Assembly (NCBI GenBank): GCA_946534715.1
Contig: CAMNCW010000026.1
Span: 5,611-69,610, forward strand
Length of the DNA stretch: 64,000 nt
From: an uncultured Bacteroidales bacterium
Lineage (GTDB): Bacteria; Bacteroidota; Bacteroidia; Bacteroidales; Paludibacteraceae
Direction of reading: 5' to 3'
How positions within the stretch are numbered: position 1 is the first letter of the stretch; each line of letters starts with the position of its first letter. The translations under genes were made by a program, and so were the position numbers. This document shows positions 516 to 62,428 of the stretch, in pieces. The notes under the pieces are model-generated. The model did no database searches. It saw nothing but the letters and a program-made list of their open reading frames with translations, and had not been told where the DNA came from.

Positions 516-1010
516 ATGAAACCAATTAACGAACTGACTATAGCAGTGGCAAGTGACCACTCGGGTTTTGGATTGAAATCCATGATTCAATTGTTTTTGG
601 AGCGTGAAGGCGCTAAGGTAGTTGATTTCGGCTGTGATTCTATGGAGAACTGCGACTTTCCGGATTTTGCACATCCGATGGCAACCGCAGTGGAGAAAGG
701 CGAATGCGATTTAGGTATTGGTTTTTGCTTTACAGGCAACGGAATGAGCATGTGCGCGAACACGCATCCTCATGTGCGCGCCACTATTTGCTGGGAGACA
801 CGCATGGCGGAGAATGCCCGTCGCTTCTTCAATGCCAACGTACTCTGTCTGCCGGCAGGAAGTGTAGCTCCGGACAAGGCATTGGATATCATTCATGCAT
901 TTGTAACCACCGCTTATGCCGGAGGCGAACGATATGAACGCCGCAATCATCATTTGGCTAATCCCAATAAATACCGGATTGAGAATGGTGAATGGATTTT
1001 AGAGAGTTGA
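516..1010 (+). CDS. rpiB: RpiB/LacA/LacB-family sugar-phosphate isomerase (ribose-5-phosphate isomerase B)
   Basis: 164 aa. N-terminus IAVASDHSGFGLK...VVDFG is typical of RpiB. Confidence 0.85.
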   Translation: MKPINELTIAVASDHSGFGLKSMIQLFLEREGAKVVDFGCDSMENCDFPDFAHPMATAVEKGECDLGIGFCFTGNGMSMCANTHPHVRATICWETRMAENARRFFNANVLCLPAGSVAPDKALDIIHAFVTTAYAGGERYERRNHHLANPNKYRIENGEWILES

Positions 1011-1034
1011 TAATTGACAATTGATAATTGATGA
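1007..1034. repeat. Heptamer array TTGAYAA x3.6 (TTGATAATTGACAATTGATAATTGATGA)
   Basis: Period-7 tandem array spanning the rpiB stop (TGA 1008-1010) and the next gene's ATG (1031). The same 28-mer recurs at 44383-44410. Confidence 0.9.
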
Positions 1035-2443
1035 AAAAATTTGACGTAAAAAAGTATATTTTAGCACCGCTGACAGTTGCAGTTGTGCTATTCATGTGGT
1101 TCGTGCCTGCCTCTTTTTTCGGCATTGAAGGTCTGACAGTAGTTCAGCAGCGAACCATAGCTATTTTCTGTTATGCCGCCCTGATGTGGATGTTTGAAAT
1201 CATCCCGGCATGGGCGACGTCTGTGTCCGCGATAGTGTTCTTGCTGATCGCCGTTTCCAACAAAGGTCTGACAAACCCGGAGATGGGTTCATTAGTCAAT
1301 TTCCGCGAACTGATGGCCGCTTTTGCAGACCCGATCATCATGCTTTTCTTAGGCGGATTCGTGTTAGCCATTACTGCCAGCAAAGTGGGCTTGGACGTGG
1401 TGTTGGCACGTGTTCTGCTCAAACCTTTCGGAACCAATCCGAAATGGGTGTTGTTGGGTTTTCTGACACTGATCAGCGTGATGTCCATGTTCATGAGCAA
1501 TACGGCTACTGCGGCTATGATGTTAGCTTTCTTAGCGCCTGTGTTGCGTACGCTGCCGGCAGATGGCGGTGGTCGTGTGAGTTTGGCAATGGCTATTCCT
1601 ATCGCCGCCAATGTGGGCGGTTTGGGAACGCCAATCGGTACTCCTCCGAACGCTATCGCAATCGGACAATTGTCGGCTATGGATATCAACATTGGTTTTG
1701 CCGCATGGATGGTTCGTTTTGTGCCGGTAGTGATCATAATGATTCTCTTTGCGTGGTGGCTGCTGCAGTTCCTTTTCCCTTTCAAGGCAAAGGATGTAAA
1801 GATCGTCATCAATCCCGATGAGCATCACGAGATGGATTGGAAATTCTGGGTTGTAACCATTACATTTATTGCTACCATCCTGCTGTGGATGACAGGTGAG
1901 TTGACTCACCTGAATTCCAATGTGGTAGCGATGATTCCTTTTGCAGTCTTCGCATTGACCGGCGTGTTTACTCGTGACGATTTCTCAAAGATCGATTGGC
2001 ATGTGCTGTGGATGGTGGCCGGTGGTTTCGCCATCGGAACGGCTCTTAACAAGACCGGTCTGGCAGCTGCGTTGGTGGAGTCCATTCCGTTCGGCAGTTG
2101 GTCAGTCATCGCCGTTTTGGTTATTTCCGGTCTGTTAGGCTGGTTACTCTCCAACTTTATCTCTCACTCGTCTGCGGCGAACTTGCTTATTCCGATCTTG
2201 GCGGTTGTCGGAACGGCTATGAACGAGCAGTTAGGCGCTTTTGGCGGTGTGACCACTTTGCTGGTCTGCGTTGCTGCTTCCACCTCGTTTGCTATGCTTC
2301 TGCCGATCTCCACTCCGCCGAATGCCATCGCTTGTTCAACGGGTTTGATCAAGACCAACGACATGGCAAAAGTGGGACTTATCATCGGTTTAGTGGGTGT
2401 AGCATTGTCGTACGCGGTGTTACTGATCTTCCCGTTTAAGTAA
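1031..2443 (+). CDS. DASS/SLC13-family sodium-coupled anion (di/tricarboxylate or sulfate) symporter
   Basis: About 470 aa polytopic membrane protein with duplicated SNTATAAMM and TPPNAIA hairpin-loop motifs. ATG at 1031; the ORF track uses TTG at 1028. Confidence 0.8.
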   Translation: MKKFDVKKYILAPLTVAVVLFMWFVPASFFGIEGLTVVQQRTIAIFCYAALMWMFEIIPAWATSVSAIVFLLIAVSNKGLTNPEMGSLVNFRELMAAFADPIIMLFLGGFVLAITASKVGLDVVLARVLLKPFGTNPKWVLLGFLTLISVMSMFMSNTATAAMMLAFLAPVLRTLPADGGGRVSLAMAIPIAANVGGLGTPIGTPPNAIAIGQLSAMDINIGFAAWMVRFVPVVIIMILFAWWLLQFLFPFKAKDVKIVINPDEHHEMDWKFWVVTITFIATILLWMTGELTHLNSNVVAMIPFAVFALTGVFTRDDFSKIDWHVLWMVAGGFAIGTALNKTGLAAALVESIPFGSWSVIAVLVISGLLGWLLSNFISHSSAANLLIPILAVVGTAMNEQLGAFGGVTTLLVCVAASTSFAMLLPISTPPNAIACSTGLIKTNDMAKVGLIIGLVGVALSYAVLLIFPFK

Positions 2444-2460
2444 TTGATAATTGAAAATTA
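2442..2460. repeat. Heptamer array AATTGAN x2.7
   Basis: aattgat aattgaa aatta, immediately after the stop codon at 2441-2443. Confidence 0.6.
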
Positions 2461-5596: not shown

Positions 5597-6238
5597 TTAC
5601 CGCACTTTGCGGATGATGGTAAGTCCGTCACGAAGAGGAAGGATGACCTGCTCAAAGCGGTCGTCCTTTTTCAATTGGTCATTGAAAGCCCGCAGACCGA
5701 GGGTCTGTTTGTCGCGGTCATATGCGGGGTCGATGATGTGTCCGTCCCAGAGGGTGTTGTCCGCCAAAATGAACCCGCCAACGGGCACTAAAGGATAAAC
5801 CGCCTCTAAATATGCGCAGTATTCGCGCTTGTCCGCATCGATAAAGACGAGGTCAAATTGATAATTGAGAATTGACAATTGAGAATTGATAATTGAGCAC
5901 GCATCGCCGATGATGAGTTCAATTTTCTCTCCCAACGGCGAACGGGAGAGGTTTCTGCGTATGGTGTCTTCCAACTCGTCGTTGTGCTCGATGGTCACTA
6001 AACGTCCGCCTTTTGCCAAACCTTCTGCAAGACACAAAGCACTATAACCGGTGAACGTACCAAGCTCCAAAATCCGTTTCGGCTTGATCATATGGCTGAA
6101 CATACTCAGCGCGCGACCCTGTACGTGTCCGCTCAACATGTGCGGGTTTAAAATATGTACGTACGTATCGCGCGTAATCGCCTCTAAAGCTCCGTTTTCG
6201 GGAGTGGAATGGTAAGAAATATACTCTTCAAGTGTCAT
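5597..6238 (-). CDS. Class I SAM-dependent O-methyltransferase (family 3, caffeoyl-CoA OMT-like)
   Basis: LELGTFTGYSALCLAEG SAM motif and FDLVFIDADKREY. Start taken at the internal Met (MTLEEYI), just downstream of a minus-strand -7 box. Confidence 0.8.
   Translation of the reverse strand: MTLEEYISYHSTPENGALEAITRDTYVHILNPHMLSGHVQGRALSMFSHMIKPKRILELGTFTGYSALCLAEGLAKGGRLVTIEHNDELEDTIRRNLSRSPLGEKIELIIGDACSIINSQLSILNYQFDLVFIDADKREYCAYLEAVYPLVPVGGFILADNTLWDGHIIDPAYDRDKQTLGLRAFNDQLKKDDRFEQVILPLRDGLTIIRKVR
5856..5897. repeat. Heptamer array AATTGAN x6 (42 nt) inside the O-methyltransferase CDS
   Basis: aattgat aattgag aattgac aattgag aattgat aattgag. Translated on the minus strand as SIINSQLSILNYQF. 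Confidence 0.9.
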
Positions 6239-6325: not shown

Positions 6326-8188
6326 ATGAAAAAAACGACCTGTTTATATTGTTTTTTGACCCTTTTAGTGGCCTTTCTTCCTGCCTCTGTACATGCAGCA
6401 TTGCAAATAACGGATGCCGGCGGATGGTATGAAAGCGCGTTTGTGGAATGGACCCCCCAAGACGGAGTGTCAGAATATAGCGTTCGAGTTCAGCCTATCG
6501 GGGAAATTCTCTATGCAGTGCCGTTTGAAATAGACGAACCTCTGATCCGTAAATACGACGGTTATTACCGCGCAGACGTATTGGGATTAGCTCCGGGCGA
6601 TTACACTTTGTCTGTTTTTTCTGCCGGCGGAAATGCTGAACCTTTGGCTACGACGGATGTATTGCTTGTCAAAGCGCATGACAGAGATGGTTTTGCGCAT
6701 TTCAATTATCCCGATGGAGTAGGAGCCTATAAGAATGACGGTACGCTCAAAGAGGGAGCCAAGGTGCTCTATGTTCACGCACAGAATATAGCTACGGTGG
6801 AAATGGATGTGGCGATCGACAAAAAAGGTACTACGCGTCATTGCGTCGGCCTGCAACATATTATCACGGCTTACGAGAAGGGTTTCGCGGATCAGCCTTT
6901 GGATATTCGTATTATCGGAACCGTTGAGGCAAGTCAATTGGATTCAATGGGCAGCAAAGAGGAAGGTTTGCAGATCAAAGGCAAGGTGGGCGTACCGATG
7001 CATATTACGGTGGAAGGTGTCGGAAAGGATGCTGTTATCCGCGGTTTCGGTATCTTGGCGCGTCAGGCTGAGAGTCTGGAGTTACGCAACTTTGCCGTTA
7101 TGACAGCTTTGGATGATTGTATATCGCTGGATACCAAAAACAGCCATGTGTGGGTGCATCATATTGACGGTTTCTATAGCCGCCCCGGTTCGGCAAGCGA
7201 CCAGAAAAAAGGCGACGGAACGATTGATGTGAAGGGAAACTCCCAATATGTGACCGTTGCCTATAACCATTTCTGGGACACCGGCAAATCCACTATGTGC
7301 GGCATGAAACAAGATACGTTGCCGAACTATGTGACCTATCATCACAACTGGTTTGATCATTCCGACTCGCGTCACCCGCGCATACGTCGCATGAGCGTGC
7401 ATATATACAATAATTATTATGACGGTATTGCCAAATACGGTGTTGGTATGACGAACGGCGGTAGTGCTTTTGTGGAGAATAACTATTTCCGTGCTTGTGC
7501 ACATCCGATGCTCATCTCAATGCAGGGAACGGACACCAAGAACGGAACAGATACCAAGGATTCGCCTACTTTCTCCAACGAGAACGGAGGTATTATAAAG
7601 GCATTCAATAATGTTTTTACAGGCTCCAAGACCCTTGTTTATTATGATGCGGAGAAAGCACCGGTGCATTTCGATGCGTACTTGGCAACTACTCGCGACG
7701 AGAAAGTTCCGGCAAAGGTTAAGGCACTCCAAGGTGGTACGACGTATGATAATTTTGATACCGATCCTTCTCTTATGCCGTCTATCGTGCCTGATGCAGC
7801 GGAAGATGTGCCTGATATCGTAATCGGTGATGGCGGAGCAGGGCGTATGCAGCATGGCGATTTCACTTTCTCTTCTTCTGATGACAGTTCGTCTGAACTT
7901 AATACTGCTTTATCAAGTCTCATTACGAATTATCAGTCTTCATTGGTCGCAATTCAAGGAGTAGAGCAGGATGACCATCAGGCTATTTATGAGGTTTTGG
8001 CAAAAGATAACGACCTTGTTTTTGACGGAATGACCCTCTATAACCCAATGGGAAAACGCATTCGTATCTATGCTGTCTCCGGCGCATGTATCGGTTCTAC
8101 GGAAGACACTTCTGTGGCTACGGACTATTTGCCTAACGGCGCATATGTGGTGGTTAGCAAAGACGGATGTCTGAAAATTACGAAATAA
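6326..8188 (+). CDS. Pectate lyase (PL1-like) with a T9SS-type C-terminal sorting domain
   Basis: Signal peptide MKKTTCLYCF..VHA. PL1 motifs WVHHIDGF and DSRHPRIRRMSVHIYNNYYDG. The last ~70 aa resemble a Por secretion tail (..NGAYVVVSKDGCLKITK). Confidence 0.75.
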   Translation: MKKTTCLYCFLTLLVAFLPASVHAALQITDAGGWYESAFVEWTPQDGVSEYSVRVQPIGEILYAVPFEIDEPLIRKYDGYYRADVLGLAPGDYTLSVFSAGGNAEPLATTDVLLVKAHDRDGFAHFNYPDGVGAYKNDGTLKEGAKVLYVHAQNIATVEMDVAIDKKGTTRHCVGLQHIITAYEKGFADQPLDIRIIGTVEASQLDSMGSKEEGLQIKGKVGVPMHITVEGVGKDAVIRGFGILARQAESLELRNFAVMTALDDCISLDTKNSHVWVHHIDGFYSRPGSASDQKKGDGTIDVKGNSQYVTVAYNHFWDTGKSTMCGMKQDTLPNYVTYHHNWFDHSDSRHPRIRRMSVHIYNNYYDGIAKYGVGMTNGGSAFVENNYFRACAHPMLISMQGTDTKNGTDTKDSPTFSNENGGIIKAFNNVFTGSKTLVYYDAEKAPVHFDAYLATTRDEKVPAKVKALQGGTTYDNFDTDPSLMPSIVPDAAEDVPDIVIGDGGAGRMQHGDFTFSSSDDSSSELNTALSSLITNYQSSLVAIQGVEQDDHQAIYEVLAKDNDLVFDGMTLYNPMGKRIRIYAVSGACIGSTEDTSVATDYLPNGAYVVVSKDGCLKITK

Positions 8189-8208
8189 TAAAATAATACA
8201 ATATTGGT

Positions 8209-9687: not shown

Positions 9688-9921
9688 ATGGGTAAGTATC
9701 GCGTCATAGTATTCCTTTTTGCCCTCGGGCTCATCAGTTGCGCTTCTAATCAAGTGCCGCTTGATGATGCGTATTATTGGCCGGACAAATCCGCTGTCTC
9801 AACCAATACGCAAACAACGACTACAACGCAAACAACGACAACAACGGCAACTACGCAAAAGCCCCTTGTCGAGTTTCTTACTGTCAAAGACACTACCGTA
9901 ACAGTCAAAATTAAGCGATGA
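9688..9921 (+). CDS. Small Thr/Gln-rich lipoprotein
   Basis: Lipobox LGLISC, followed by TQTTTTTQTTTTTATTQ encoded by an 18-nt repeat. Confidence 0.5.
   Translation: MGKYRVIVFLFALGLISCASNQVPLDDAYYWPDKSAVSTNTQTTTTTQTTTTTATTQKPLVEFLTVKDTTVTVKIKR
9808..9861 (+). repeat. 18-nt tandem repeat x3 (acgcaaacaacgacwaca)
   Basis: Encodes TQTTTT units. The core caaacaacg resembles the decamer array at 21474-21511. Confidence 0.7.
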
Positions 9922-11249
9922 AAAACCTCCGATACATATTGTCCTTTGTCCTTTGTACATTGTCCCTTTGTACTTTTGCACAGGATTATGCCCGTATCTC
10001 CGAGCGCTCTATCATGGGAACAGCGCGCTATGTGGGTATGGGAGGTGCGATGTCTGCTATCGGTGGCGACCCGTCTTCTATTCATGACAACCCTGCCGGA
10101 TTAGGACTTTACCGGCGTACGGAGATGATGATCACGTTTGACGGCATGTTCGATAAGACTACTCAACCGGGTTATCAGGATGTCGGCGAAAGGCGACTCT
10201 TCATGGCGCCACAAGCATCGCTGATCTTCTCCATGCCTTCTTATAGCGCGGACGATGAGGGAGTTCAGTTCAATAATCTCTCTTTGTCTTACCGCCGCCT
10301 CAATACATTCAATCGTCTGTGGCTCGGTTCGGGCGAGAAGGACTTGTCCCTCGGAGCGTTGTTAACCACAGCGGATGTCAAATGGGATATACCCTTCTGC
10401 TCCGAGAAGATAAATGCAACCAATCTTCTCGACTTAGCGGAGAGCGGTCACACCAGTGAGTTCGCGATTGATTGGGCAATTAACATCTCTAATAGATGGT
10501 TTGTGGGTTTCGGAGTGCATATTCAGTCTTATTTCTTGGCTTCGGACGGAGATTTTCAGGAGACTTTTTCTTCCAAGAATGCGTTCGGAAGGAATATGTA
10601 TAACCTCAACCAAACGAAACTGACCCTTTCGGGAACAGGATGTAACCTCACAGCAGGGCTCATCTATCGTCCGGCTTCTTGGATCCGTATGGGATTTGGT
10701 ATTCAGACGCCTACATTGGGATCGCTCAATACTTATACCTCCGGCACACTCGTTGCCTTGACGGATTCGGTTCGGTATTCCTATGCACCTAATGCGTATA
10801 GCCGTGATTCGAAGTTCCATATGCCTCTGCATTTGTCTTCTTCGGTAGCCTTTCAAGTGGGCGCGTATGGCATGCTTGCATTCCAATATGATTATTTCAA
10901 GCAACTGCAAAACGATGCCGTTCATTCCTTGCGAACCGGTCTTGAGGTCATTCCTGTCATGGGATTGTATGTGAATGCCGGATATGCGTTTGAGAGCACT
11001 TTCAAGAAGAATACGAACCCTGTTCCGATGGATCCGACTTTTGAGCGTCAAGATACCTATTTCGTGACCCCGCAGTGGTCGCAATATGTCTCTGCCGCAA
11101 TCGGCTATCGAGGAACAATTATGATGGTTCAAGCAGCATACCAATATCGCTGGCAAAGAACTAATCTATATGCCCACGAGAATGCCTCGCCATATGATAT
11201 GAATGCCACTACCCACCGCATCATTTTTACCATAGGCTGGCATAGATAA
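9918..11249 (+). CDS. Outer-membrane beta-barrel protein (FadL/PorV-like N-terminal motif)
   Basis: Signal peptide plus RYVGMGGAMSAIGGDPSSIHDNPAGLG, a motif seen in FadL/PorV-type barrels. 443 aa. Confidence 0.5.
   Translation: MKNLRYILSFVLCTLSLCTFAQDYARISERSIMGTARYVGMGGAMSAIGGDPSSIHDNPAGLGLYRRTEMMITFDGMFDKTTQPGYQDVGERRLFMAPQASLIFSMPSYSADDEGVQFNNLSLSYRRLNTFNRLWLGSGEKDLSLGALLTTADVKWDIPFCSEKINATNLLDLAESGHTSEFAIDWAINISNRWFVGFGVHIQSYFLASDGDFQETFSSKNAFGRNMYNLNQTKLTLSGTGCNLTAGLIYRPASWIRMGFGIQTPTLGSLNTYTSGTLVALTDSVRYSYAPNAYSRDSKFHMPLHLSSSVAFQVGAYGMLAFQYDYFKQLQNDAVHSLRTGLEVIPVMGLYVNAGYAFESTFKKNTNPVPMDPTFERQDTYFVTPQWSQYVSAAIGYRGTIMMVQAAYQYRWQRTNLYAHENASPYDMNATTHRIIFTIGWHR
9939..9980. repeat. Heptamer array TTGTNCN x6 (42 nt) encoding the signal-peptide h-region
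   Basis: ttgtcct ttgtcct ttgtaca ttgtccc tttgtac ttttgca gives SFVLCTLSLCTFA. This is the reverse complement of the GTACAAR arrays that encode the C-terminal tails at 32321, 34104 and 37401. Confidence 0.8.
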
Positions 11250-11268
11250 TGGATAATTGATAATTGAG
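11245..11268. repeat. Heptamer array GATAATK x3.4
   Basis: gataatg gataatt gataatt gag, overlapping the stop codon at 11247-11249. Confidence 0.7.
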
Positions 11269-11327
11269 ATCCCGAAAGACCCACGAAAAACCCGCGAAAT
11301 ACCCGCGAAAGAGGGGCGAAAAAATGA
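11268..11327 (+). repeat. 11-nt period array (CGAAANACCCR x5) with GATCC leader
   Basis: gatcc cgaaagaccca cgaaaaacccg cgaaatacccg cgaaagagggg cgaaaaaatga. An inverted copy lies at 43371-43422. Confidence 0.85.
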
Positions 11328-17476: not shown

Positions 17477-17477
17477 T

Positions 17478-17510
17478 AATTGTAAATTGTAAATTGTGCA
17501 TTGTAAATTA
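17478..17510. repeat. Heptamer array AATTGTA x4.7
   Basis: aattgta aattgta aattgtg cattgta aatta fills the whole gap between the peptidase stop (17508-17510) and the thioesterase start (17476). Confidence 0.9.
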
Positions 17511-44377: not shown

Positions 44378-44382
44378 GGTTA

Positions 44383-44410
44383 TTGATAATTGACAATTGA
44401 TAATTGATGA
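44383..44410. repeat. Heptamer array TTGAYAA x4 (identical 28-mer to 1007-1034)
   Basis: ttgataa ttgacaa ttgataa ttgatga fills the 33-nt spacer between two minus-strand genes. Confidence 0.9.
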
Positions 44411-45076: not shown

Positions 45077-45101
45077 TTGTAATTTGTAATTTGAGATTTA
45101 A
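45074..45101. repeat. Heptamer array NATTTGW x4
   Basis: catttgt aatttgt aatttga gatttaa. Spans the start of one gene and the stop of the next. Confidence 0.8.
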
Positions 45102-46396: not shown

Positions 46397-46418
46397 ATTG
46401 TTGTTGTTTTGTTATTTT

Positions 46419-46458
46419 CGTGATCTCGTGATCTCGTGATCTCGTCATTTCGTGATTA
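46419..46458. repeat. Octamer array CGTGATCT x5 (three perfect units)
   Basis: cgtgatct cgtgatct cgtgatct cgtcattt cgtgatta. Same unit as 36513-36536. Overlaps the prfC stop. Confidence 0.9.
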
Positions 46459-47952: not shown

Positions 47953-50419
47953 TGAATTTCTCTTCGAATGTTGCCTTTAGGCGGTTCATAATATTCTCAA
48001 TCTGTGTATCTTTGAGGGTGTTCTCTGCATCTTGGAGGATGAAGGAGAGGGCATAGGATTTCTTGCCTTCTTCGAGGTTCTTGCCCTCATAGACATCAAA
48101 CAGATAGACGTTCTTGAGCAGTTTCTTCTCCGTGGAGAAGGCAGCGCGTGCGAGGTCTGCGAACTCAACAGATTTATCCACAAGGAGCGCAAAGTCACGC
48201 TTAACTTCCGGATATTTGGGCAGATCATTGATAACTGCTTTGTATTGTTTGTTCTGTTTGAGCAGTTGGTTCCAATCAAGGTCTGCATAATAGACTTCCT
48301 GGTCGATGTCGAAGATCTTGAGCTGCTTGCGAGCCACGATGCCAATAAAGCCGAGTGCTTTGCCGTTAGCGGCTTTGATGACGAGACCATCAGAGAAGAG
48401 TTCGTTCTCCAGACGCTCTACGGTCGTCTTGGAGAGATCAACACCGAGACGCACAAGGATGTTGTTCACATATGCGTGGAGCTGATAGAACGTGGTTTTC
48501 TCTTCCTTGCGAACCCAAGTCTGTGCGGCTTTGTTACCGGTGAGCCAAAGACCGATATGCGGCTCCTCGGAATATGCCTTGAGTGGATCGTTTTGAATTA
48601 ATTCGTAATTTTTAATTTTTAATTCTCCATTGTAGTGGTAGCAGTTACCGAACTCGTAGAACTTGAGGTCGCTGTTCTTGCGGTTGGCGTTGCGTGCGAT
48701 AGACTCGAGTCCGCCAAAGAGCAGGGTCTGACGCATCACACCGAGGTCTTGGCTCAAGGGGTTCATGATCTTGACGCACGTGTCCAATGTCAGTTGGGTC
48801 AAAGGCTCGTAGTACGATACTTTGGTAAGCGAGTTATTGAGGATCTCATTGAAGCCCTGTGCGGTGAGTTGCTCTGCAATCTTACGACGCAGTTTCTCAG
48901 GATCCGGCTTGAGACCATATGCAAGGCTGGTGTTCAGTTTCTCAGGGAACTCGACATTGTCATAGCCGTAGATACGGAGGATGTCTTCCACTACATCGCA
49001 CTCACGCTGTACGTCCACGCGGTAGCGCGGAACTTCCAACTGCCAGGAGTCGCCATGTTTGGTAACTATATTGATCTCCAATGCGTGGAGGATCGTTTCG
49101 ATCGTGTCCTCGCCGATAGCTTTACCGATGAGGCTGTTGACACGGTTGATGTCAATAGTTACTGACCATGGAGACAGTAGCGAATCAGTGGCGGTAAAGT
49201 CTAGGATCATTCCTATTTGATCAGCATTCGAGAGCGTTTTGATAAGGAGGGCGGCACGTTTGAGGACGTAAAGTGTGTTGCAAGGGTCACAGCCACGCTC
49301 GTAACGGAAAGAAGCGTCCGTCTGGAGCTGGTGACGACGACTCGTCTTGCGGATGGTTACGGGATCGAAATAGGCTGACTCCAAGAAGATGTTTTTGGTG
49401 TTTTCTGTTACACCGCTTTCAAGTCCGCCGAAGACTCCGGCTATACACATCGCCTCTTCTTTGTTGGCTATCATGAGATCGCGTGCATCCATTTCGCGTT
49501 CAACGCCGTCGAGAGTAACGAATTTCTCGCCTTGTTTAGCATAGCGGACGTGAATCTCGTTGCCCTTTATCTTGTCTGCATCGAAGGCGTGGAGCGCTTG
49601 TCCGCACTCGTGGAGCACGAAGTTAGTGACATCGACGATGTTGTTAATAGGGCGAAGACCGATGGCCAAGAGGCTGTTTTTGAGCCATTCCGGCGATTCT
49701 TTTACTTCTACACCTTTGATATAAACGCCGGAATAACGCGGGGCTGCGTCCGGCGCTTCAACAATGACAGAGATGGGTGATTCGTTGATATCCGATTTGA
49801 ACTCCTCTACTGAAGGTTTGGAGAGCGCGATATCCTGTCCGTGCGCTTTGTAGTATGCGTAAAGGTCACGGGCTACACCATAGTGAGATGCTGCGTCGGA
49901 ACGGTTTGGCGTGATATCTACTTCGATGATGGTGTCATTCTCAATGTGGTAGTAATCAGCGGCTTTCATGCCCACCGGCGTGTCCGCCGGGAGGACGATG
50001 ATGCCTGCATGGTCTGTTCCCACACCGATTTCGTCTTCCGCGCAGATCATACCGAATGAGTCCTCGCCGCGGAGTTTGCCTTTTTTGATGGTGAAGGACT
50101 GATCGCCGTCATAGAGAACGGTTCCGATAGTAGCGACGATAACTTTCTGTCCGGCCGCGACATTCGGCGCTCCGCAGACAATAGGCAGCGGTTCTGCTTC
50201 TCCAACGTTCACTTTGGTGATATGCAAGTGGTCGGAATTAGGGTGAGGTTCACAAGTTAACACTTCGCCCACAACAAGGCCTTTGAGTCCGCCACGGATC
50301 GATTCTTTCTCTTCCACTGTTCCCACTTCCAAACCGATAGAAGTAAGAATTTTTGCTACTGTTTCCGCGTCATCTTTCAACGCAATGTAGCGTTTTAACC
50401 AATTATACGATATATTCAT
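47936..50419 (-). CDS. pheT: Phenylalanine--tRNA ligase beta subunit
   Basis: 827 aa. MNISYNWLKRYI, tRNA-binding, B3/4, B5 and FDX-ACB domain order. Confidence 0.95.
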   Translation of the reverse strand: MNISYNWLKRYIALKDDAETVAKILTSIGLEVGTVEEKESIRGGLKGLVVGEVLTCEPHPNSDHLHITKVNVGEAEPLPIVCGAPNVAAGQKVIVATIGTVLYDGDQSFTIKKGKLRGEDSFGMICAEDEIGVGTDHAGIIVLPADTPVGMKAADYYHIENDTIIEVDITPNRSDAASHYGVARDLYAYYKAHGQDIALSKPSVEEFKSDINESPISVIVEAPDAAPRYSGVYIKGVEVKESPEWLKNSLLAIGLRPINNIVDVTNFVLHECGQALHAFDADKIKGNEIHVRYAKQGEKFVTLDGVEREMDARDLMIANKEEAMCIAGVFGGLESGVTENTKNIFLESAYFDPVTIRKTSRRHQLQTDASFRYERGCDPCNTLYVLKRAALLIKTLSNADQIGMILDFTATDSLLSPWSVTIDINRVNSLIGKAIGEDTIETILHALEINIVTKHGDSWQLEVPRYRVDVQRECDVVEDILRIYGYDNVEFPEKLNTSLAYGLKPDPEKLRRKIAEQLTAQGFNEILNNSLTKVSYYEPLTQLTLDTCVKIMNPLSQDLGVMRQTLLFGGLESIARNANRKNSDLKFYEFGNCYHYNGELKIKNYELIQNDPLKAYSEEPHIGLWLTGNKAAQTWVRKEEKTTFYQLHAYVNNILVRLGVDLSKTTVERLENELFSDGLVIKAANGKALGFIGIVARKQLKIFDIDQEVYYADLDWNQLLKQNKQYKAVINDLPKYPEVKRDFALLVDKSVEFADLARAAFSTEKKLLKNVYLFDVYEGKNLEEGKKSYALSFILQDAENTLKDTQIENIMNRLKATFEEKFNATLR
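48595..48633. repeat. Heptamer array AATTNNT x5 in frame in pheT (GELKIKNYELIQ on the minus strand)
   Basis: ttgaatt aattcgt aattttt aattttt aattctc cattgta. Confidence 0.8.
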
Positions 50420-50784: not shown

Positions 50785-51411
50785 ATGAACAAAATTTCAA
50801 TTATTGTAGATTCAGTTTTGTGTGCCGCAGTAGTGGCCTTGTTTGTGATGTTTTTTGTAGCCATGCCGAAGAGCAAGAAGCCTGTTAATCAGGATGTTGA
50901 GGCTTCAGGCGAGTTACTGCCTATTGCTGTAGTGAATACAGATTCGATTTTGAAACATTACACTTTAGCCGTTGAGGCATCGGATAAATTGATGGCTCAA
51001 TATGAGGAGTCCACGGTTAAACTGGATACCAAAGCAAAAGCCCTTCAGAAAGAGTACGAGACTTTCCAACGCGACGTTGTGGATTTTCAGCGCAAAGTGG
51101 AGGCCAATGCTTTCCTGAGCCGCGAACGTGCCGAGTCTGAGCAATCTCGTTTGCAGAAAAAAGAGCAACAGTTGATGAGCAAACAGCAGGATTTGGAAAA
51201 TCTGCGTCAGAAATTGAGCTCGGATTTTATGAACGAGCAGGCTGCTTTGACCCAACAGTTGCAGGATTCAGTACAACAATATCTGCGTGAATATAACGCT
51301 GACGGTCATCTGCATCTGATTCTAAATGAAGCTGTTCTGATGAACAAAGTGGCAGGCTATGACATTACCGATGAGGTGATTGAAGGTCTGAATGCACGGT
51401 ATAAGAAGTAA
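50785..51411 (+). CDS. OmpH/Skp-family periplasmic chaperone
   Basis: 208 aa. N-terminal anchor, then long Q/E/K-rich coiled coil typical of OmpH. Confidence 0.75.
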   Translation: MNKISIIVDSVLCAAVVALFVMFFVAMPKSKKPVNQDVEASGELLPIAVVNTDSILKHYTLAVEASDKLMAQYEESTVKLDTKAKALQKEYETFQRDVVDFQRKVEANAFLSRERAESEQSRLQKKEQQLMSKQQDLENLRQKLSSDFMNEQAALTQQLQDSVQQYLREYNADGHLHLILNEAVLMNKVAGYDITDEVIEGLNARYKK

Positions 51412-51413
51412 AT

Positions 51414-51447
51414 AACCCCCTCCCGACCTCCCCCACAAGGGGAGGAG
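51414..51447 (-). repeat. Solo G/C hairpin element (reverse orientation) directly after a stop codon
   Basis: TAA-at-aaccccctcccgacctcccccacaaggggaggag. Same left-arm sequence as 24748 and 29132. Confidence 0.85.
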
Positions 51448-51471
51448 AACGGGAAAGATAGAAATAGAAAG

Positions 51472-53316
51472 ATGAGTAAGGAAAGGATGACATATAAGAA
51501 GATATGGACAGGACTGATTGTCCTTTCCTTATTTTTGCTTTCTATTGCGCCTTTGTCTGCACAACGTATTCCTGAGGCGATTGAGTACACAGAAGTGTAT
51601 GATTTTATAGAAGAACTGACGAGTGACGGCGTTATTCAAAGTAACGCGGCGATAAAGCCGTACACGCGGGATGCCATCGCCCGGATGTTGCTGGACGCAC
51701 AAAGCAAGGATTCGCTGCTGAATCAACGGCAGAAGGATGATTTGCAGTTCTATTTGCAGGATTATGCGTTAGAAGCGGACACTCTGCCGGTTTATTACAG
51801 TTACGGACATCGGCATGTGACGCAATGGATTACGCCGGTTTCTAATCTGTCTTTGGCAGATCCGAGTTTGCATATTCTGACGCAAAACAAAGTGTTCAAG
51901 ATGCGTGTTCGTCCGATTTTGGGCATGGATCTGAGTTATAACAAACGCGGCATGCTGATGCATCGTTGGTATGGCGCAGAGATTCAAATGGACATTGCGC
52001 ATCATTTGTCTATTTGGGGTTCGATCCGTGATAACAGTTGGAGCGGACAAGGCATAGATGGTTCGAAAATTACCAAACCGCTGTATCTGAATGATTTAGC
52101 CGGAGTGCAATATAAGGAATCGAACTATGGCGGCGATTTTTCGGATTCGCGTGGTGGTATTTCGCTCTATACGTGGTGGGGTAGTATAGGCGTTCAGCGC
52201 GAACGCATTCAATGGGGCGATGCACAGCATTGCTCCAATATCCTGTCGGCGCATAATCCCGCAGTTCCAATGGTAACGTTGCAGTTGACGCCGTGCAAGT
52301 GGTTTCAATTTGATTATTTCCACGCATGGCTTCCGAGCAACGTAATGGACTCAACGTATTATTACTCAGAGCGTTACAAAGAAGGCGAGACGAAATTGAA
52401 CTACCGTCCGGCGAATAAGTTTATGGCGGCGAACATGTTTACGTTCATGCCGATCAAATACATTCAGTTTTCGTTCGGAAACTCAATTGTTTATGCCGAA
52501 CGCACTGTGCAAGCGGCTTATTTTATTCCGATTGCGTTTTATAAATCGCTGGATCACTTGTTGACGAAAGGTCTTGGATCTGAAAATCAGAACTCGCAGG
52601 TTTTTGCAAGTATTTCTGTGCGTCCGACCGATCATTTGAGGCTGTATGGTTCTTTCTTCTTAGACGAATTCAAGTTAGCACGTCTAAATCCATCGAACAA
52701 AGAGAAGAATCCTATTTCTTATTTGGTGGGATTCAACTGGAGCGGCTGGCCTGTTAAAGGTTTGTCGTTACGAGGTGAGTTTATGCGCTCATATATCGCT
52801 TGCTACACGCATTCTATTAAGGTAACTGATTATAGTTCAAACAGTTACAATATGGGACATTATATGGGTGACAATGCACAGAGTATTTTTGTGCAGTTGG
52901 CTTATCGTCCCGTTCGCGGACTTCGTTTGACGCTTGATTACACGAATGACACCAAATACCGCGCGTATGATTATGTGCGTGCCTATATAGCGGGACAGCG
53001 CAATACAACGACGCCAATTATTGCCCAGAAGCCGTTTGACGAGAAGATCTGGCGCAACGATATTCTTCGTTTCCGCGCAGTGTATGAGGTGTTTAACAAC
53101 TGTTATGCACATGTGGATGTGAGTTACAACAACGCGCGAGCGTACGCTCCTCAATCCGCGCGCATATTAGGCGAGGACAGAGGATGGAATGCCGATGGTA
53201 CTTCACAAGAGTTAGCCGGAGACGAGTTGGTTAACTATTATCTGAATAAGTACACGCCGGTTTATTTACAAGGCAAAAACGTCACCGTGACTTGCGGTTT
53301 GAGTTTTGGATTCTAA
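51472..53316 (+). CDS. Outer-membrane beta-barrel protein (Wzi-like capsule-assembly family, tentative)
   Basis: Signal peptide. N-terminal YDFIEELTSDGVI...IKPYTRDAIARML helix motif. C-terminal ...CGLSFGF beta-signal. Confidence 0.5.
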   Translation: MSKERMTYKKIWTGLIVLSLFLLSIAPLSAQRIPEAIEYTEVYDFIEELTSDGVIQSNAAIKPYTRDAIARMLLDAQSKDSLLNQRQKDDLQFYLQDYALEADTLPVYYSYGHRHVTQWITPVSNLSLADPSLHILTQNKVFKMRVRPILGMDLSYNKRGMLMHRWYGAEIQMDIAHHLSIWGSIRDNSWSGQGIDGSKITKPLYLNDLAGVQYKESNYGGDFSDSRGGISLYTWWGSIGVQRERIQWGDAQHCSNILSAHNPAVPMVTLQLTPCKWFQFDYFHAWLPSNVMDSTYYYSERYKEGETKLNYRPANKFMAANMFTFMPIKYIQFSFGNSIVYAERTVQAAYFIPIAFYKSLDHLLTKGLGSENQNSQVFASISVRPTDHLRLYGSFFLDEFKLARLNPSNKEKNPISYLVGFNWSGWPVKGLSLRGEFMRSYIACYTHSIKVTDYSSNSYNMGHYMGDNAQSIFVQLAYRPVRGLRLTLDYTNDTKYRAYDYVRAYIAGQRNTTTPIIAQKPFDEKIWRNDILRFRAVYEVFNNCYAHVDVSYNNARAYAPQSARILGEDRGWNADGTSQELAGDELVNYYLNKYTPVYLQGKNVTVTCGLSFGF

Positions 53317-55952: not shown

Positions 55953-55971
55953 CAAATAATTTTTAATTTTT

Positions 55972-56325
55972 ATGGAAAATAATAGCATTGAAATGGCTTT
56001 AATGGAGCCGGAAGAGCAGGAATTGGTGAAATTTATCTATAATTTCATTCCCGCAGAAGACCGAGGCAGTTTGAGTGCCGATGACATTTTATTGGTGTTG
56101 GATTTGATGGATGATTACTTAGAGGAACAATCCTTAGTCCGCGAAAATCCCGAAACAGGCGAGATGGAATACTTGGACGGCGAGGTAGATGAAACCGAGC
56201 AGTTGAACTATGTATTAGCGGCGGTAAAGGAAGAGGGACGTTCTATTACGGGTACTCAAATTCAGTTAATTCAAGATGCAGAACTTCAGTTCGGCATCGA
56301 GCATGGTTATTATACGGAGGAATAA
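55972..56325 (+). CDS. Acidic hypothetical protein (117 aa)
   Basis: Clean ORF after a promoter box, abutting ribF. No recognisable motif. Confidence 0.5.
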   Translation: MENNSIEMALMEPEEQELVKFIYNFIPAEDRGSLSADDILLVLDLMDDYLEEQSLVRENPETGEMEYLDGEVDETEQLNYVLAAVKEEGRSITGTQIQLIQDAELQFGIEHGYYTEE

Positions 56326-59373: not shown

Positions 59374-61956
59374 TTAGTAATCTCCGGAAGTGCTATTTCC
59401 ACTATCATCCATGTCTTCTCCGCCGCCTTCGTAGTCACCATCTTTTCCATGTCGTTTTCCTTGCTGATTACCAAAGTTATAGGTCACGGTAAGGCTGATC
59501 GAGCGGCTATGCCAGCGGTTCTCGCTGAATTGCCAGAATCCATCTCCCCAGGTCGTGTTACGACGTGCGCGGCTGTCCAACAAGTCACGGACGTTGAGTG
59601 CGAGTGCCAACTTCTTGTTGAGGAAGGTGTGACGCAGACCCAAGTCGATAGAGTAACTATGACTGCTTGTACCTTGCGCCACCACGCGCGGCGAACGATA
59701 GCGCGCCGAGATCTGTCCGCTGAAGTTCTTGGTAAAGAGGAACTGCGCGTTTACTCGTACTGAGCCTGCAAAGATATTCTGTTGTGGCAGATTAACGGGT
59801 ATTTCTACGCCTTGGTACATGATTGTTTTATCCACCGCAGAGATGTTATTCCAATAGAAGTTAGCGGACGTAGTGAGTTGGAGCAATTCTCCGAAGAGAC
59901 GGTTCTTTGCCACAAACTCAACACCCAATTCCTGACGCGCACCTATATTGAAATAGGTGTTTTTCATCACTTTCGGATCCGCCGGGTCCATGTATTTGAA
60001 GTTCTGTACGGCACCCTCACGGTATTTCCAGAACATTCCTGCCGAAATGGTATGACGCTCCCATGTTTTGAGGTAGTTCAGTTCCAAGTTGTTGGAGTAT
60101 GCCGGAAGCAGATCCACGTTGCCGAAGCTGATGTTTGTGCTATCCGAGAAGTCCATTCGCGGGTTGATCTGGTGTCCCCAAGGACGGTTTACACGGCGTG
60201 TGTAATTGAGTTGCAACTCGTTTCCGTTACCGAAATCATAACTGATATAGGCACTCGGGAAGAGTTGGAAATAGGAGGTGTCCTTCTTATTGGGGAATGC
60301 CGCATATGAGTCCTGAACAGTTCCGAGACCATCTTTGTATTTGGATTCCAGATGACGCATATAATACTCACCACGGAGACCGACTTGAATCGACAGTTTG
60401 TTGAAGAAGCGGTTTCCATATGTGACATAGAGTGCGTGGTTCTGGGTACGTCCGTTGAAATCTGCATAATAGGGGTACAACTCTGTTTCTACGCCTTTCG
60501 CGATGTTGTGCGCATCGGCGGAAGATTTATTCCAATTGCGGGTGTAATCATAACCGGCTTCGAAACGACTTTGCTGCGTCGGTTTCCATTCGTAGTCCGC
60601 TTTGATCTCTATACCCTGGTCGTTGGAAAGGGAGGTCTGCTTCTGGTAAGTGGAGTCGCCCTTTTCAATTTGGGTGTAATCGGTCAACATGTTAAAACCG
60701 AAGTTATTGTACGTGCCGCTGACGATCAACTGGTGGTCATCCATTTTGAAAGTGTAGTCCAATGTGGCATTTCCTCCGGGGTGTGAACCTGTTCCGGCTT
60801 GATCACGCGTGTAGTCACGCATCACAGAGCCATCCGGAGCCGTAAGAAGGAAGGTACGATGATTAGTGTTGTACATCTTGAACACTTTGGGGTCGCTGAC
60901 CATGCCAAAACCGGATACTCCGATCGTGGAGTATTCCGAGACATGGAAGTTCAAACCTCCTCGCGCGAACATACCACCGCCACGGTGTGATTGTACTCCT
61001 TCCTGCACTAAACGGCTCTCAATCAACGAACTATCGAGTACTTGCGAGCCGGTGTTATTGCCTAAGTTATAGCGATCGGTTTTGCTACCACCATTGCTGA
61101 CATGATAGCGGTAACCGAGGTTGAAATAACCGTCAACGATACCGGAGTTGAAGTTGATGTTAAAGCCGACATTTGCTCCGGGAGGCACATTCCATGGAGC
61201 CGCAAGGGAGTAATCAATACCGGCTTGCACTGAACCGTAGTAACCCGCTGTGCGGTCTTTTTTCATAACGAGGTTGATGATACCGGATGTTCCTTCGGGC
61301 GAGTATTTGGCAGAAGGGTTGGTAATGATTTCAATCTTCTCGATGGTTCCTGCCGGCATTTGCTGGAGGACTTGTCCTCTGTTTTCGCTGTTCAGACCAG
61401 CGGGTTTGCCGTTGATCCAGATCTCCACGTCTTCGGAGTTACGGAGCGAGATCGTTCCTTCCTGATCGACATCCACCGAAGGGATGTTTTCCAGGACATC
61501 GGTCACGCTGGCTCCTGCGGAGGCGATGTTCTGATCCACGGTAAAGACTTTCTTATCCAATTCAAAGCGCATCGATGATCCTTGTCCGACCACTTCGACG
61601 TCTTGCAGGACTTGCGTATCTTCTTTGAGGGCAATCTTGCCGAGATTGACATCTTTGCCGGCCACGGTGAGTTCGCGTCTTTGCTCTGTGTAACCCATAA
61701 AGGAAACAACGAGAACGTAGTTGCCATTCGCCATTTCGAGGACGAAGTTTCCTTTCTCGTCCGTGATTGTGCCGGAGAGTGGGGCAGGGTCTTGTCCTTT
61801 GAGCACACTGACGTTTGCAAAGTCAATCGGTTGCTTAGAACCGAAATCAATGACTTTACCGGTAATCTTTGCCGCAAAGGCCAGTTGTGTACAACAAAGA
61901 GAAAGGATTAGTGCTAATCCCAGGAGCTTAACATATGTATAGTTTTCAGTTTTCAT
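59374..61956 (-). CDS. TonB-dependent-receptor-like outer-membrane beta-barrel protein
   Basis: From MKTENYTYVKLL. CarboxypepD_reg-like KITGKVIDFGSKQPIDFANVSV, plug-like region and a large barrel. Confidence 0.8.
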   Translation of the reverse strand: MKTENYTYVKLLGLALILSLCCTQLAFAAKITGKVIDFGSKQPIDFANVSVLKGQDPAPLSGTITDEKGNFVLEMANGNYVLVVSFMGYTEQRRELTVAGKDVNLGKIALKEDTQVLQDVEVVGQGSSMRFELDKKVFTVDQNIASAGASVTDVLENIPSVDVDQEGTISLRNSEDVEIWINGKPAGLNSENRGQVLQQMPAGTIEKIEIITNPSAKYSPEGTSGIINLVMKKDRTAGYYGSVQAGIDYSLAAPWNVPPGANVGFNINFNSGIVDGYFNLGYRYHVSNGGSKTDRYNLGNNTGSQVLDSSLIESRLVQEGVQSHRGGGMFARGGLNFHVSEYSTIGVSGFGMVSDPKVFKMYNTNHRTFLLTAPDGSVMRDYTRDQAGTGSHPGGNATLDYTFKMDDHQLIVSGTYNNFGFNMLTDYTQIEKGDSTYQKQTSLSNDQGIEIKADYEWKPTQQSRFEAGYDYTRNWNKSSADAHNIAKGVETELYPYYADFNGRTQNHALYVTYGNRFFNKLSIQVGLRGEYYMRHLESKYKDGLGTVQDSYAAFPNKKDTSYFQLFPSAYISYDFGNGNELQLNYTRRVNRPWGHQINPRMDFSDSTNISFGNVDLLPAYSNNLELNYLKTWERHTISAGMFWKYREGAVQNFKYMDPADPKVMKNTYFNIGARQELGVEFVAKNRLFGELLQLTTSANFYWNNISAVDKTIMYQGVEIPVNLPQQNIFAGSVRVNAQFLFTKNFSGQISARYRSPRVVAQGTSSHSYSIDLGLRHTFLNKKLALALNVRDLLDSRARRNTTWGDGFWQFSENRWHSRSISLTVTYNFGNQQGKRHGKDGDYEGGGEDMDDSGNSTSGDY

Positions 61957-62392
61957 TTTCAAGCAACCATTGCACGGCTTCTTTGTATCCATCCGTTCCA
62001 TGCCCAATTATCGTGTGGGCGCACACGTCTGTGAGTAAACTAATATTTCTAAAAGGTTCGCGCGCGTGTATATCCGAGATGTGTACTTCCACAACGGGTA
62101 GCCGGCAATCCTCGACGGCGTCTCTCAAAGAAACGGATGTGTGGGTGTAACCGGCGGCATTTAGCACAATACCGAGGCACTTGTCATTGGACATTTGATA
62201 TTTGTCATTTGACATTTGGATCCAGTCTATGAGATCGCCTTCGTGGTTGGATTGATGATATACAAAATGCACATCGGGCCAATTTCGTTGGATGTCCAAC
62301 AAAATCTGTGCCATTGTTTTGGAACCGTATATTTCCGGCTTTCTTAACCCAAGACGATTGAGGTTTGGTCCGTTTATAATGACGATGGTCAT
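61946..62392 (-). CDS. aroQ: Type II 3-dehydroquinate dehydratase
   Basis: IVIINGPNLNRLGLRKPEIYG, QSNHEGDLID and AAGYTHTSVSLRDA motifs. Confidence 0.9.
   Translation of the reverse strand: MTIVIINGPNLNRLGLRKPEIYGSKTMAQILLDIQRNWPDVHFVYHQSNHEGDLIDWIQMSNDKYQMSNDKCLGIVLNAAGYTHTSVSLRDAVEDCRLPVVEVHISDIHAREPFRNISLLTDVCAHTIIGHGTDGYKEAVQWLLENEN
62178..62219. repeat. Heptamer array CAAATGN x6 (42 nt) in frame in aroQ (QMSNDKYQMSNDKC)
   Basis: Minus strand reads ccaaatg tcaaatg acaaata tcaaatg tccaatg acaagtg, a 21-nt super-period duplicated. Confidence 0.9.
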
Positions 62393-62393
62393 T

Positions 62394-62428
62394 ATGTGTG
62401 ATGTGTTATGTTTGATGTGTTCTATTTT
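62394..62428. repeat. Heptamer array ATGTKTK x5 filling the rho-aroQ spacer
   Basis: atgtgtg atgtgtt atgtttg atgtgtt ctatttt. Confidence 0.85.

Follow-up and report, generated by a model that had tools for sequence, protein, structure and literature searches.

Heptanucleotide tandem arrays at gene junctions and inside genes of an uncultured Bacteroidales lineage: probable products of slippage and copying filtered by selection

The 64-kb window analysed here (64,000 nucleotides of contig CAMNCW010000026.1, from an uncultured Bacteroidales bacterium) is a Bacteroidales chromosome segment with a GC content of ~0.49, in which gene junctions and coding sequences carry short head-to-tail arrays of mostly seven-nucleotide units. 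A mannan-type polysaccharide utilisation locus (PUL) occupies positions 22676-43301 and comprises genes for an AraC regulator, a GH26, a SusC/SusD pair, a GH36, a further GH26, a GH130, an MFS transporter, an epimerase and a mannose-6-phosphate isomerase, and it is flanked by housekeeping genes (PheT, RF3, the type II dehydroquinase AroQ and tRNA-Pro). The closest database genomes are two uncultured Bacteroidales metagenome-assembled genomes (MAGs), L001 and L002, with ~85% amino-acid and ~77% nucleotide identity, and contigs of the same or a sister species (L081, L082 and L163-L175) come from several metagenome assemblies, whose sample labels alone suggest an origin in rumen studies. Three look-ups by exact protein sequence gave no match. 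Strain alignments were made for six loci with 93-97% identity to the window, and the wider survey draws on 162 related loci, 2.54 Mb in all, retrieved from the surroundings of GH36 and GH130 homologues. In an Rfam scan of the window the gathering score was reached by tRNA-Pro alone, and the arrays match no curated covariance model.

Arrays were called with Tandem Repeats Finder (TRF) at a minimum score of 30, which returned 30 period-7 and 10 period-8 rows for the window together with a few 10- and 11-mers; the period-7 rows hold 2.1-7.6 head-to-tail copies at 69-100% matches, a range that replaces the 3-6 units per array given in the initial annotation of this DNA. All 13 junction coordinates listed in that annotation (1007, 2442, 17478, 34307, 36494, 37461, 38500, 39737, 42261, 44383, 45074, 46419 and 62394) coincide with TRF arrays, and its heptamers (TTGATAA, AATTGTA, AATTTAC, CAAATCT, AAATCGT, CCAATNA, TCTCAAC, ATGTGTG and GTACAAG), octamers (CGTGATCT and GTTAAATT) and decamer (TCAAACAACG) were all recovered. 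Global dinucleotide shuffles of the window yield a mean of 0.89 period-7 rows (maximum 4), and dinucleotide shuffles confined to 60-nt segments, which keep the local A/T content, a mean of 1.61 (maximum 5), against the 30 observed; for period 8, 10 rows stand against an expectation of 1.7. A count independent of TRF, in which one 4-mer recurs three times at a fixed distance, gives 115 cases in the window at spacing 7 (top cores AATT, ATTG, AAAT and ATTT) and 1, 4, 27, 17, 17 and 20 cases at spacings 5, 6, 8, 9, 10 and 11, respectively, and 14-nt higher-order units are present in five arrays. The longer classes named earlier hold up only as individual arrays: the decamer array at 21474 and both 11-mer arrays (11273 and 43369) are clear, but the class counts are not clearly above chance (6 vs ~2 and 3 vs ~1.3, respectively).

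These counts bear directly on the proposal that the arrays arose by chance from A/T-rich intergenic sequence or through faulty assembly. The units are indeed A/T-rich, as is the intergenic DNA of the source genome, but local shuffling accounts for 1.6 of 30 rows, spacings other than 7 show no enrichment, the same arrays recur in independent assemblies from different studies and samples, and loci of similar composition from cultured Bacteroides and Prevotella lack them. We regard this explanation as refuted and leave it virtually no probability. Neither outcome that the initial annotation had named as refuting, a lack of enrichment at gene boundaries or a frequency explained by A/T content (30 vs 0.89-1.61), was observed.

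Although called open reading frames (ORFs) cover nearly all of the window, 14 of the 30 period-7 arrays touch intergenic DNA or a gene boundary, and the remainder divide into five in the first codons of an ORF, three in the last codons and eight that are truly internal. That arrays fill most short gaps between genes could be upheld: a 7- or 8-mer array occupies 13 of the 22 co-directional gaps of 10-100 nt, and three of those without one hold a GC-rich hairpin element instead. In 31 array-rich Bacteroidales loci, which total 566 kb, arrays are 16.6 times as dense as on average in co-directional gaps of up to 100 nt, an inflated per-nucleotide figure, since such gaps consist largely of array sequence; the relative density is 4.4-fold in longer co-directional gaps, 5.1-fold in convergent and 2.5-fold in divergent gaps, 2.6-fold in the first and 2.1-fold in the last 45 nt of ORFs, and 0.42-fold in ORF interiors.

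The junction arrays of the window, to which no strand is assigned, often hold the codons that end and begin the adjoining genes, as had been proposed: TTGATAA (3.7 copies, 1007-1032) contains both the stop (TGA) of ORF 516-1010 and the start (ATG) of ORF 1031-2443. The stop of the latter ORF, a member of the Na/sulfate symporter family, is overlapped by TAATTGA (2.7 copies, 2441-2459), the octamer AAATAATA (2.6 copies, 8183-8203) lies at junction 8188/8209, and GATAATT (3.3 copies, 11245-11267), which overlaps the stop of ORF 9918-11249, is followed by the 11-mer CGAAAAACCCG (3.5 copies, 11273-11310). AATTGTA (4.6 copies, 17478-17509) separates the minus-strand ORFs 16739-17482 (acyl-ACP thioesterase) and 17508-19661; read in gene orientation its unit is AATTTAC, the same that runs into the ATG of the GH36 ORF 34336-36507 (4.4 copies, 34307-34337). 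The perfect decamer TCAAACAACG (3.8 copies, 21474-21511) lies 46 nt downstream of tRNA-Pro. The octamer GTTAAATT occurs with 3 copies at 32367-32390, where it includes the stop codon at junction 32371/32400, and with 3.6 copies at 34150-34178, where it overlaps the stop of ORF 32400-34154 just upstream of a small ORF at 34183.

Further into the PUL, three abutting arrays (TAATTGA in 2.9, GTGATCTC in 3.1 and AATTTAT in 4.9 copies; 36494-36572) fill the 74-nt gap 36507/36582, AAATCTC (4.6 copies, 37462-37493) contains the beginning of the GH26 ORF 37471-38541, its ATG and the codons that follow (MSNLKSQI), and AAATCGT (7.6 copies, 39713-39769) spans the GH130 stop together with the ATG and first codons of the MFS ORF 39746-41137. 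ATAATTT (4 copies, 42261-42288) occupies junction 42264/42291, and the 11-mer TTTCGCGGGTA (4.5 copies) lies at 43369-43417. Between minus-strand ORFs we find ATTGATA (4.4 copies, 44382-44412; ORFs 43829-44377 and 44411-45076), ATTTGTA (2.7 copies, 45075-45093; ORFs 44411-45076 and 45098-46396) and ATGTGTG (3.9 copies with a 14-nt higher-order unit, 62392-62421; junction 62392/62431). The octamers TATTTTGT (2.8 copies) and TCGTGATC (4.9 copies) together fill junction 46396/46456 (46396-46456), and TAATTTT (2.3 copies, 55957-55972) abuts the ATG of ORF 55972-56325 in a divergent gap.

Several smaller features adjoin these junctions. The 11-mer arrays at 11273-11310 (CGAAAAACCCG) and 43369-43417 (TTTCGCGGGTA) are reverse-complement copies of each other, exact over 21 nt, and both lie downstream of the last gene in a gene run. 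The small ORF between the array-filled gaps of the PUL (34183-34308) has 41 codons (MKKNYIEPKTEIISVEMTNTLCASGKPVTFGSGKANGGGGL); L001 has a small ORF related to it, and in L167 gene calling puts a 40-aa gene at the corresponding position. Downstream of tRNA-Pro (21353-21428) a terminator-like hairpin precedes the perfect decamer array (TCAAACAACG x3.8, to 21511), and the region 21353-21511 could mark an integration site.

Arrays inside genes, whose length had been put at 35-42 nt and which in fact measure 25-42 nt, are free of stops in sense orientation, and the peptides they encode resemble one another. On the plus strand, TTGTCCT/TTGTACA (5.3 copies, 9939-9976) forms the signal-peptide core LSFVLCTLSLCTF of ORF 9918-11249, and a 21-mer of this array recurs in signal peptides of L001; GTACATC/TTGTACT/TTGTCCC heptamers (25984-26045) lie in the N-terminal signal region of the SusC-like ORF 25966-29130. 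ACCAATC (3 copies, 29668-29694) lies within a lineage-specific insertion of the SusD-like ORF, directly followed by a GC-rich hairpin insertion, TCAACTA (4.9 copies with a perfect 14-nt higher-order unit, 32104-32139) encodes NLNYQLSTINSQL in ORF 31019-32371, and two GTACAAG/AAGTACA arrays (34050-34136) supply C-terminal codons of ORF 32400-34154. AATGTCA (4.4 copies, 36139-36169) encodes NDKYQMSNVK in a loop insertion of GH36, TTATTCA (2.1 copies, 36593-36607) covers codons 4-9 of ORF 36582-37451, and CAAATCT (5.7 copies, 38500-38539) encodes the last 13 residues (QISNLKCQISNLK) of GH26 and overlaps the start region of the GH130 ORF. AAATCGT/ACATCGT (3.9 copies, 39515-39548) encodes NKSYIVNRPIVN in a 16-aa loop insertion of GH130, and AATGACC (3.6 copies, 42057-42081) of the epimerase ORF 41134-42264 is identical in five related strains. 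On the minus strand, AATTGAG/AATTGAT (6 copies with a 14-nt higher-order unit, 5856-5897) encodes CSIINSQLSILNYQF in the O-methyltransferase ORF 5597-6238, AATTAAA/AATTACG (3.9 copies, 48598-48624) encodes ELKIKNYELI in PheT, AGTTTTC (3.1 copies, 61941-61961) covers codons 14-21 of ORF 59374-62001, and CAAATGT/CAAATGA (5.4 copies, 62181-62218) encodes QMSNDKYQMSNDK in AroQ.

By sequence comparison, these coding arrays sit mostly in lineage-specific insertions. The AroQ array corresponds to exactly seven additional residues (21 nt, three units) relative to PDB 1GQO, and that of PheT falls in an insertion of six residues relative to two Bacteroidales PheT domain structures. The loop that contains the GH36 array is 12 residues shorter in most of ~40 homologues and six shorter in L001 and L002, and the GH130 loop is 15-16 residues shorter in most homologues. 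T-rich TTGTACA/TTGTCCC arrays form the hydrophobic cores of signal peptides, at 9939 and 25984 in the window and in several genes of L001 and L002, and the reverse complement of the TTGTACA family encodes polar segments, as in the C-terminal arrays at 34050-34136 and in a GH130 loop of L001.

Across the 162 surveyed loci period 7 is the most frequent TRF class, with 300 rows, and the distribution of array density is lineage-restricted. The window carries 4.7 arrays per 10 kb against a median of 0.46 for the first 80 loci plus the window; several uncultured MAGs labelled Prevotellaceae, Muribaculaceae or Bacteroidaceae reach 3-8 per 10 kb, and of ten named Bacteroides, Parabacteroides and Prevotellaceae loci, mostly from isolates, eight have no array, one has one and one has three. 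The units are diverse, with 173 canonical forms among 330 arrays, most of them with 1-3 G/C per unit, and dispersed families (TTGATAA, AAATGTC, CGTGATCT, AATTTAC and TTGTACA/TTGTCCC) occupy two to six sites each. There is no more than a hint that neighbouring arrays share a unit beyond chance: p is 0.056 for the window and 0.008 for L015, and seven other loci gave no significant result.

The comparison between strains that the initial annotation had recommended revealed differences in both array presence and length, in the form of unit-length indels and family swaps. Array indels of 7, 14, 14, 11 and 7 nt occur in L167, L170 and L171, and in the six aligned loci 29 of 40 indel events fall inside TRF arrays, which make up ~5% of the aligned sequence; apparent substitution is 8-25% within arrays and 3-6% outside them in five of six comparisons. 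The 11-mer array at 43369 has one additional unit (11 nt) in L167 and L170, in which the array at junction 44382 is in turn 14 nt shorter; at the latter junction L174 carries an AATTAAA-family array. Relatives show unit substitutions (GTA/GAG/GAA/GTG) and the loss of one unit in the array at 45075, and in L167 the array at 34307 has unit substitutions, with a 3-nt deletion just upstream at 34291. In coding sequence, the L001 and L002 orthologues of the 25984 array differ by indels, and all coding-array variants seen among the strains are in frame, including 6-nt indels in GH130 and PheT, the latter a deletion at 48598 in L166-L168. Whole-unit strain differences, the concentration of indels in arrays, the 14-nt higher-order units and the likeness of units within but not between genomes strongly support one of the roles originally suggested, that of footprints of slippage or recombination.

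The same comparison argues on the whole against contingency loci, in which the gain or loss of units would switch genes by phase variation. Copy number does differ between strains, and several arrays contain a start codon, so that N-termini change with the array, as in the MFS protein of either 463 or 475 aa. However, short imperfect arrays (72-93% matches, 2-7 copies) suppress rapid slippage, frame-disrupted alleles were not seen among the variants, and the genes concerned serve housekeeping and sugar utilisation, with no surface antigens among them. In contigs 99.5-100% identical to the window, moreover, the arrays at 1007, 2441 and 39713 are unchanged, and the arrays are therefore not hypermutable. 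We consider phase variation very improbable.

Beyond changes in copy number, entire unit families are replaced. Array units are homogeneous within each genome and different between genomes: the orthologous junction 39731/39746 carries AAATCGT in the window, AAAATGNG in L001 and AAATGGT in L002, and arrays have been gained or lost at 41137 and 42264 between the window, L001 and L002. Closer relatives show such alternatives as well, with an AAATGTC/AAATATC allele of the 39713 array in L167 and L170, three or two copies of AATTTTT at junction 42261 in relatives and an AAATCGT-type array there in L167 and L170, AAATCGT-type (window, L167) or AAATGTC-type (L169, L081) units inside GH130, and four unrelated alleles at 46396-46456, namely CGTGATCT, a CCTAG-type, an ACTAGTC-type and AATTAAA/AATTACG. 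Unlinked arrays of the window, in turn, have exact strings in common, variant units included: 28 nt between 1007 and 44383 and 25 nt between 36513 and 46420; a further 20 nt are shared by the GH36 (36139) and AroQ (62190) arrays, both in sense orientation, and one more exact shared string measures 19 nt. The junction allele swapped into L167 matches the internal array of GH36 3.6 kb away, that of L166 is the reverse complement of the internal PheT array ~2 kb away, and TTGTACATTGTCCCTTTGTAC is found at six positions within 22 kb of L001, in either orientation, both in signal peptides and in a GH130 loop. We gave less weight to variant patterns shared across species, as the one mismatch allowed in that comparison lets perfect arrays of the same unit match.

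Such sharing could mean that the arrays are small mobile or copied cassettes, inserted or exchanged by a dedicated templated mechanism, be it an unknown enzyme or regular template switching. Identical strings of 20-28 nt with the same variant units at unlinked sites (1007/44383, 36513/46420 and 36139/62190), the six copies of TTGTACATTGTCCCTTTGTAC in L001, the presence of four unrelated alleles at 46396-46456 and two families at 42261 among strains 93-97% identical, and a whole-array swap as the only difference that the window and L081 show at 39515 all fit this proposal. Against it, a search for conserved array ends, target-site duplications and inverted termini found none, no candidate enzyme gene was seen in the window, unit-length copy changes and 14-nt higher-order units show growth in place, and the cross-species matches (at most one mismatch) are in part just perfect arrays of one unit. 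We accordingly hold cassettes to be possible but unlikely. More doubtful is the further-reaching version in which heptamer cassettes would be actively exchanged and templated in a 7-nt register, with swaps that tune cistrons lacking a Shine-Dalgarno (SD) sequence, diversify signal peptides and loops and serve as an evolvability system of PULs. A test for palindromes of the repetitive extragenic palindromic (REP) or miniature inverted-repeat transposable element (MITE) type returned only trivial A/T self-complementarity within units.

Bacteroidetes are known for SD-independent initiation, with which the presence of an SD-like core upstream of only 4 of 51 genes agrees. On the sense strand, junction arrays are rich in A (0.43, against 0.31 for T), with a positive AT skew in 37 of 51 (p = 0.002); the median distance between array end and downstream start is 12 nt, and for a quarter of the arrays it is no more than 1.5 nt. 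Start regions (-40 to +10) with arrays have a mean minimum free energy (MFE) of -2.8 kcal/mol, compared with -4.7 kcal/mol for those without (p = 0.001), and yet the MFE z-score against composition-matched shuffles is ~0, as for other genes; the low structure thus comes from composition and not from tandem organisation. With GC content matched, the folding difference is only +0.46 kcal/mol (p = 0.04), and on these two results we reject the idea that repetition was selected to lower RNA structure. The role first suggested for the arrays, as unstructured initiation regions for SD-less translation, is partly supported by the scarcity of SD cores, the A-richness and the weaker folding, the last being an effect of composition. 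Stops in all three frames are present in 42 of 85 sense arrays and 24 of 85 antisense ones, a comparison we discount as evidence of selection since it is biased by the absorption of stop-free arrays into ORF calls.

The position of the arrays relative to starts also invites the proposal that they act as cis-elements for an RNA- or DNA-binding protein (of the cold-shock-domain or S1-like OB-fold kind) which would recognise them in a 7-nt register and control translation of the downstream gene, as has been suggested for the TAACTGA repeats of Beggiatoa. Arrays adjoin starts, are A-rich on the sense strand, occupy 13 of 22 short junctions and in the window share a recurrent AAWT core; precedents are CspB, for which PMC4679880 cites the binding of one heptamer per protein, and the heptamer repeats of Nostoc with reported regulatory effects (bioRxiv 10.1101/2022.06.06.494920). 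However, 173 canonical units among 330 arrays would have to be recognised, units occur in both orientations (TTGATAA at 1007 and at 44383 differ in this respect relative to the genes), arrays are found also at 3' ends and within ORFs, and family, copy number and even array presence vary in close relatives whose genes are unchanged. A sequence-specific binding site is disfavoured because the units are diverse, both orientations occur and families swap freely between strains; a sequence-specific binding role is thus unlikely, cis-elements of this kind are improbable, and the phased binding sites of the initial annotation are not supported, given the unit diversity and whole-array swaps. A Fur-box or sigma-70-like reading of TGATAAT and TTGACA units was considered, and we take the period of 7 rather than 6, the lack of a relation of the genes to iron and the different promoters of Bacteroidales to speak against it.

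The explanation we consider rather probable is that the arrays are long simple sequence repeats (SSRs) of heptanucleotide, in some cases 8-, 10- or 11-nt, units, akin to short tandemly repeated repetitive (STRR) sequences, arising in this lineage from replication slippage together with unequal or ectopic copying and filtered by selection. Slipped-strand mispairing would yield new units, preferably in a 7-nt register, and template switching or short-patch conversion would spread unit families from array to array. Selection would then leave arrays only at sites of little harm, stop-containing families surviving only between genes and stop-free families persisting, in frame, where they encode signal-peptide cores, protein termini or surface loops. 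Most of the spacer at co-directional junctions consists of arrays, which supply the upstream stop, often in all three frames, and often the downstream ATG, and which provide an A-rich, weakly folded leader that probably suits SD-independent initiation. The arrays have probably acquired a role as A-rich spacers contributing stop and start codons, and their repeat organisation appears to be a by-product of spacer formation and no requirement for spacer function.

Several observations weigh against this account. The 7-nt register is left unexplained by slippage and copying, and the replacement of a whole array by another unit family is not easily explained by simple slippage: the flanks of the 39515 array in L081 are ~99.9% identical over 2 kb, and yet every unit has changed from CGT to GTC. 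Arrays of 20-40 nt are short for RecA-dependent conversion, and no donor with matching flanks was found. The arrays at 42057, 36139, 37462 and 36494-36572 are unchanged across strains diverged by 3-5%, and arrays are therefore not uniformly unstable. The same unit families recur in distant lineages, which could point to function, and the methyltransferase array at 5856 replaces sequence, with no net length change relative to PDB homologues. Short co-directional gaps are enriched above other intergenic classes, by the inflated figure given above, and the sense-strand bias towards stops and A is partly an ascertainment effect.

Heptanucleotide repeats of the STRR type have been known from cyanobacteria since 1990. 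Contrary to the impression that the arrays fall outside every standard feature class, they belong to one that has already been described, that of heptanucleotide long SSRs and STRR-type repeats (PMC4679880, PMC4692102). According to the summaries of Mrazek et al. 2007 in these two papers, heptanucleotides are the commonest class of long SSRs, for which polymerase slippage was proposed; as outlined there, they resemble the present arrays in their head-to-tail 7-nt units, the dominance of period 7, their lineage specificity and mostly intergenic location, and differ in that the genomes named in those summaries are Burkholderia, cyanobacteria, actinobacteria and Xanthomonas, not Bacteroidales. 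What sets the present arrays apart is the large number of their A/T-rich unit families, the very high share of intercistronic junctions that they occupy, the in-frame insertions in housekeeping proteins and the swapping of families at strain level.

The closest parallels differ in instructive ways. Direct repeats of TAACTGA, for which a translational role was suggested in Beggiatoaceae, are present in marine Beggiatoaceae, some cyanobacteria and five Bacteroidetes (MacGregor 2015, PMC4679880). As here, 2-6 copies lie directly upstream of or overlap starts in genomes with few SD sequences, the forward orientation stops all three frames, and stop-free orientations are tolerated in ORFs, mostly at their termini; unlike here, there is a single unit, compared with dozens of units, strain-level family swaps and insertions in housekeeping enzymes, and a search of the present sequences for tandem TAACTGA with one mismatch allowed found none. 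The STRR and heptamer repeats of Calothrix and Nostoc are likewise dispersed and near promoters or starts, sometimes overlapping the ATG (PMC4692102; bioRxiv 10.1101/2022.06.06.494920), but have other units, belong to another phylum and often form longer arrays; none of the STRR units given in these two sources was found in tandem. A cyanobacterial origin or classical STRRs can be dismissed on the absence from the window of any HIP1 site and of any STRR unit in tandem, and on its Bacteroidales PUL genes. In Xanthomonas, GGGAATC repeats (Rehm et al. 2015, PMC4692102) likewise form heptamer arrays, ~90% of them intergenic and mostly between co-oriented ORFs, with extensive length and sequence variation in close relatives at conserved positions, but are G-rich, quadruplex-capable and nearer the upstream ORF, whereas those described here are A/T-rich and often abut the downstream start. 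Contingency SSRs of Neisseria and Haemophilus, finally, are also short tandem repeats that change by slippage, but with units of 1-5 nt in long perfect tracts and on/off switching, in contrast to imperfect, short (at most 7.6 copies) and frame-preserving arrays. Full-text literature searches turned up no account of arrays like these from Bacteroidales of the gut or rumen.

The lineage thus offers an extreme and informative form of heptanucleotide repeats, and its strains constitute an allelic series, provided by nature, with which an influence of leader arrays on translation rates could be examined in SD-independent Bacteroidales. For annotation, the arrays are a warning that start codons, N-termini and short loops are repeat-derived and strain-variable in these genomes, and they provide markers with a resolution like that of variable-number tandem repeats (VNTRs) for tracking rumen and gut Bacteroidales strains.

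The window also holds repeats of other kinds. A GC-rich hairpin mini-element, CCTCCCC(C)ACAAGGGGAGG, lies at heptamer-free short junctions (24758-24782, 29144-29160 and 51425-51449) and, in reverse orientation, within two ORFs (20308-20325 and 24835-24852), and looks like a second family of dispersed short repeats. Around one copy, at junction 51411-51472, L166 and L167 show an insertion of 14 nt and a deletion of 11 nt, so that indel hotspots include junction elements other than arrays. A second hairpin family, TCTCCCCCTCTGAGAGGGGG, occurs in frame within coding sequence, at 29700-29719 in the SusD-like ORF, where it is an insertion relative to L001 and L002 directly after the heptamer array, and at 42772-42791 in a PMI-like ORF; a peptide that resembles its product, SPWERAGGEV, is inserted in the GH130 loop of L083. 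An exact 27-nt repeat, ATGTCAAAAAAAAGCAGTACCTTTGCA, occurs at 21255-21281 and, on the minus strand, at 43715-43741, with one copy upstream of tRNA-Pro, and ends in TAccTTTG, which we take to be a Bacteroidetes promoter-like motif. Finally, ORF 14128-16182 contains coding repeats of 18 nt (11 copies) and 90 nt (2.1 copies) at 15728-15928, which represent a protein repeat of the usual in-frame kind and have no relation to the heptamer arrays.

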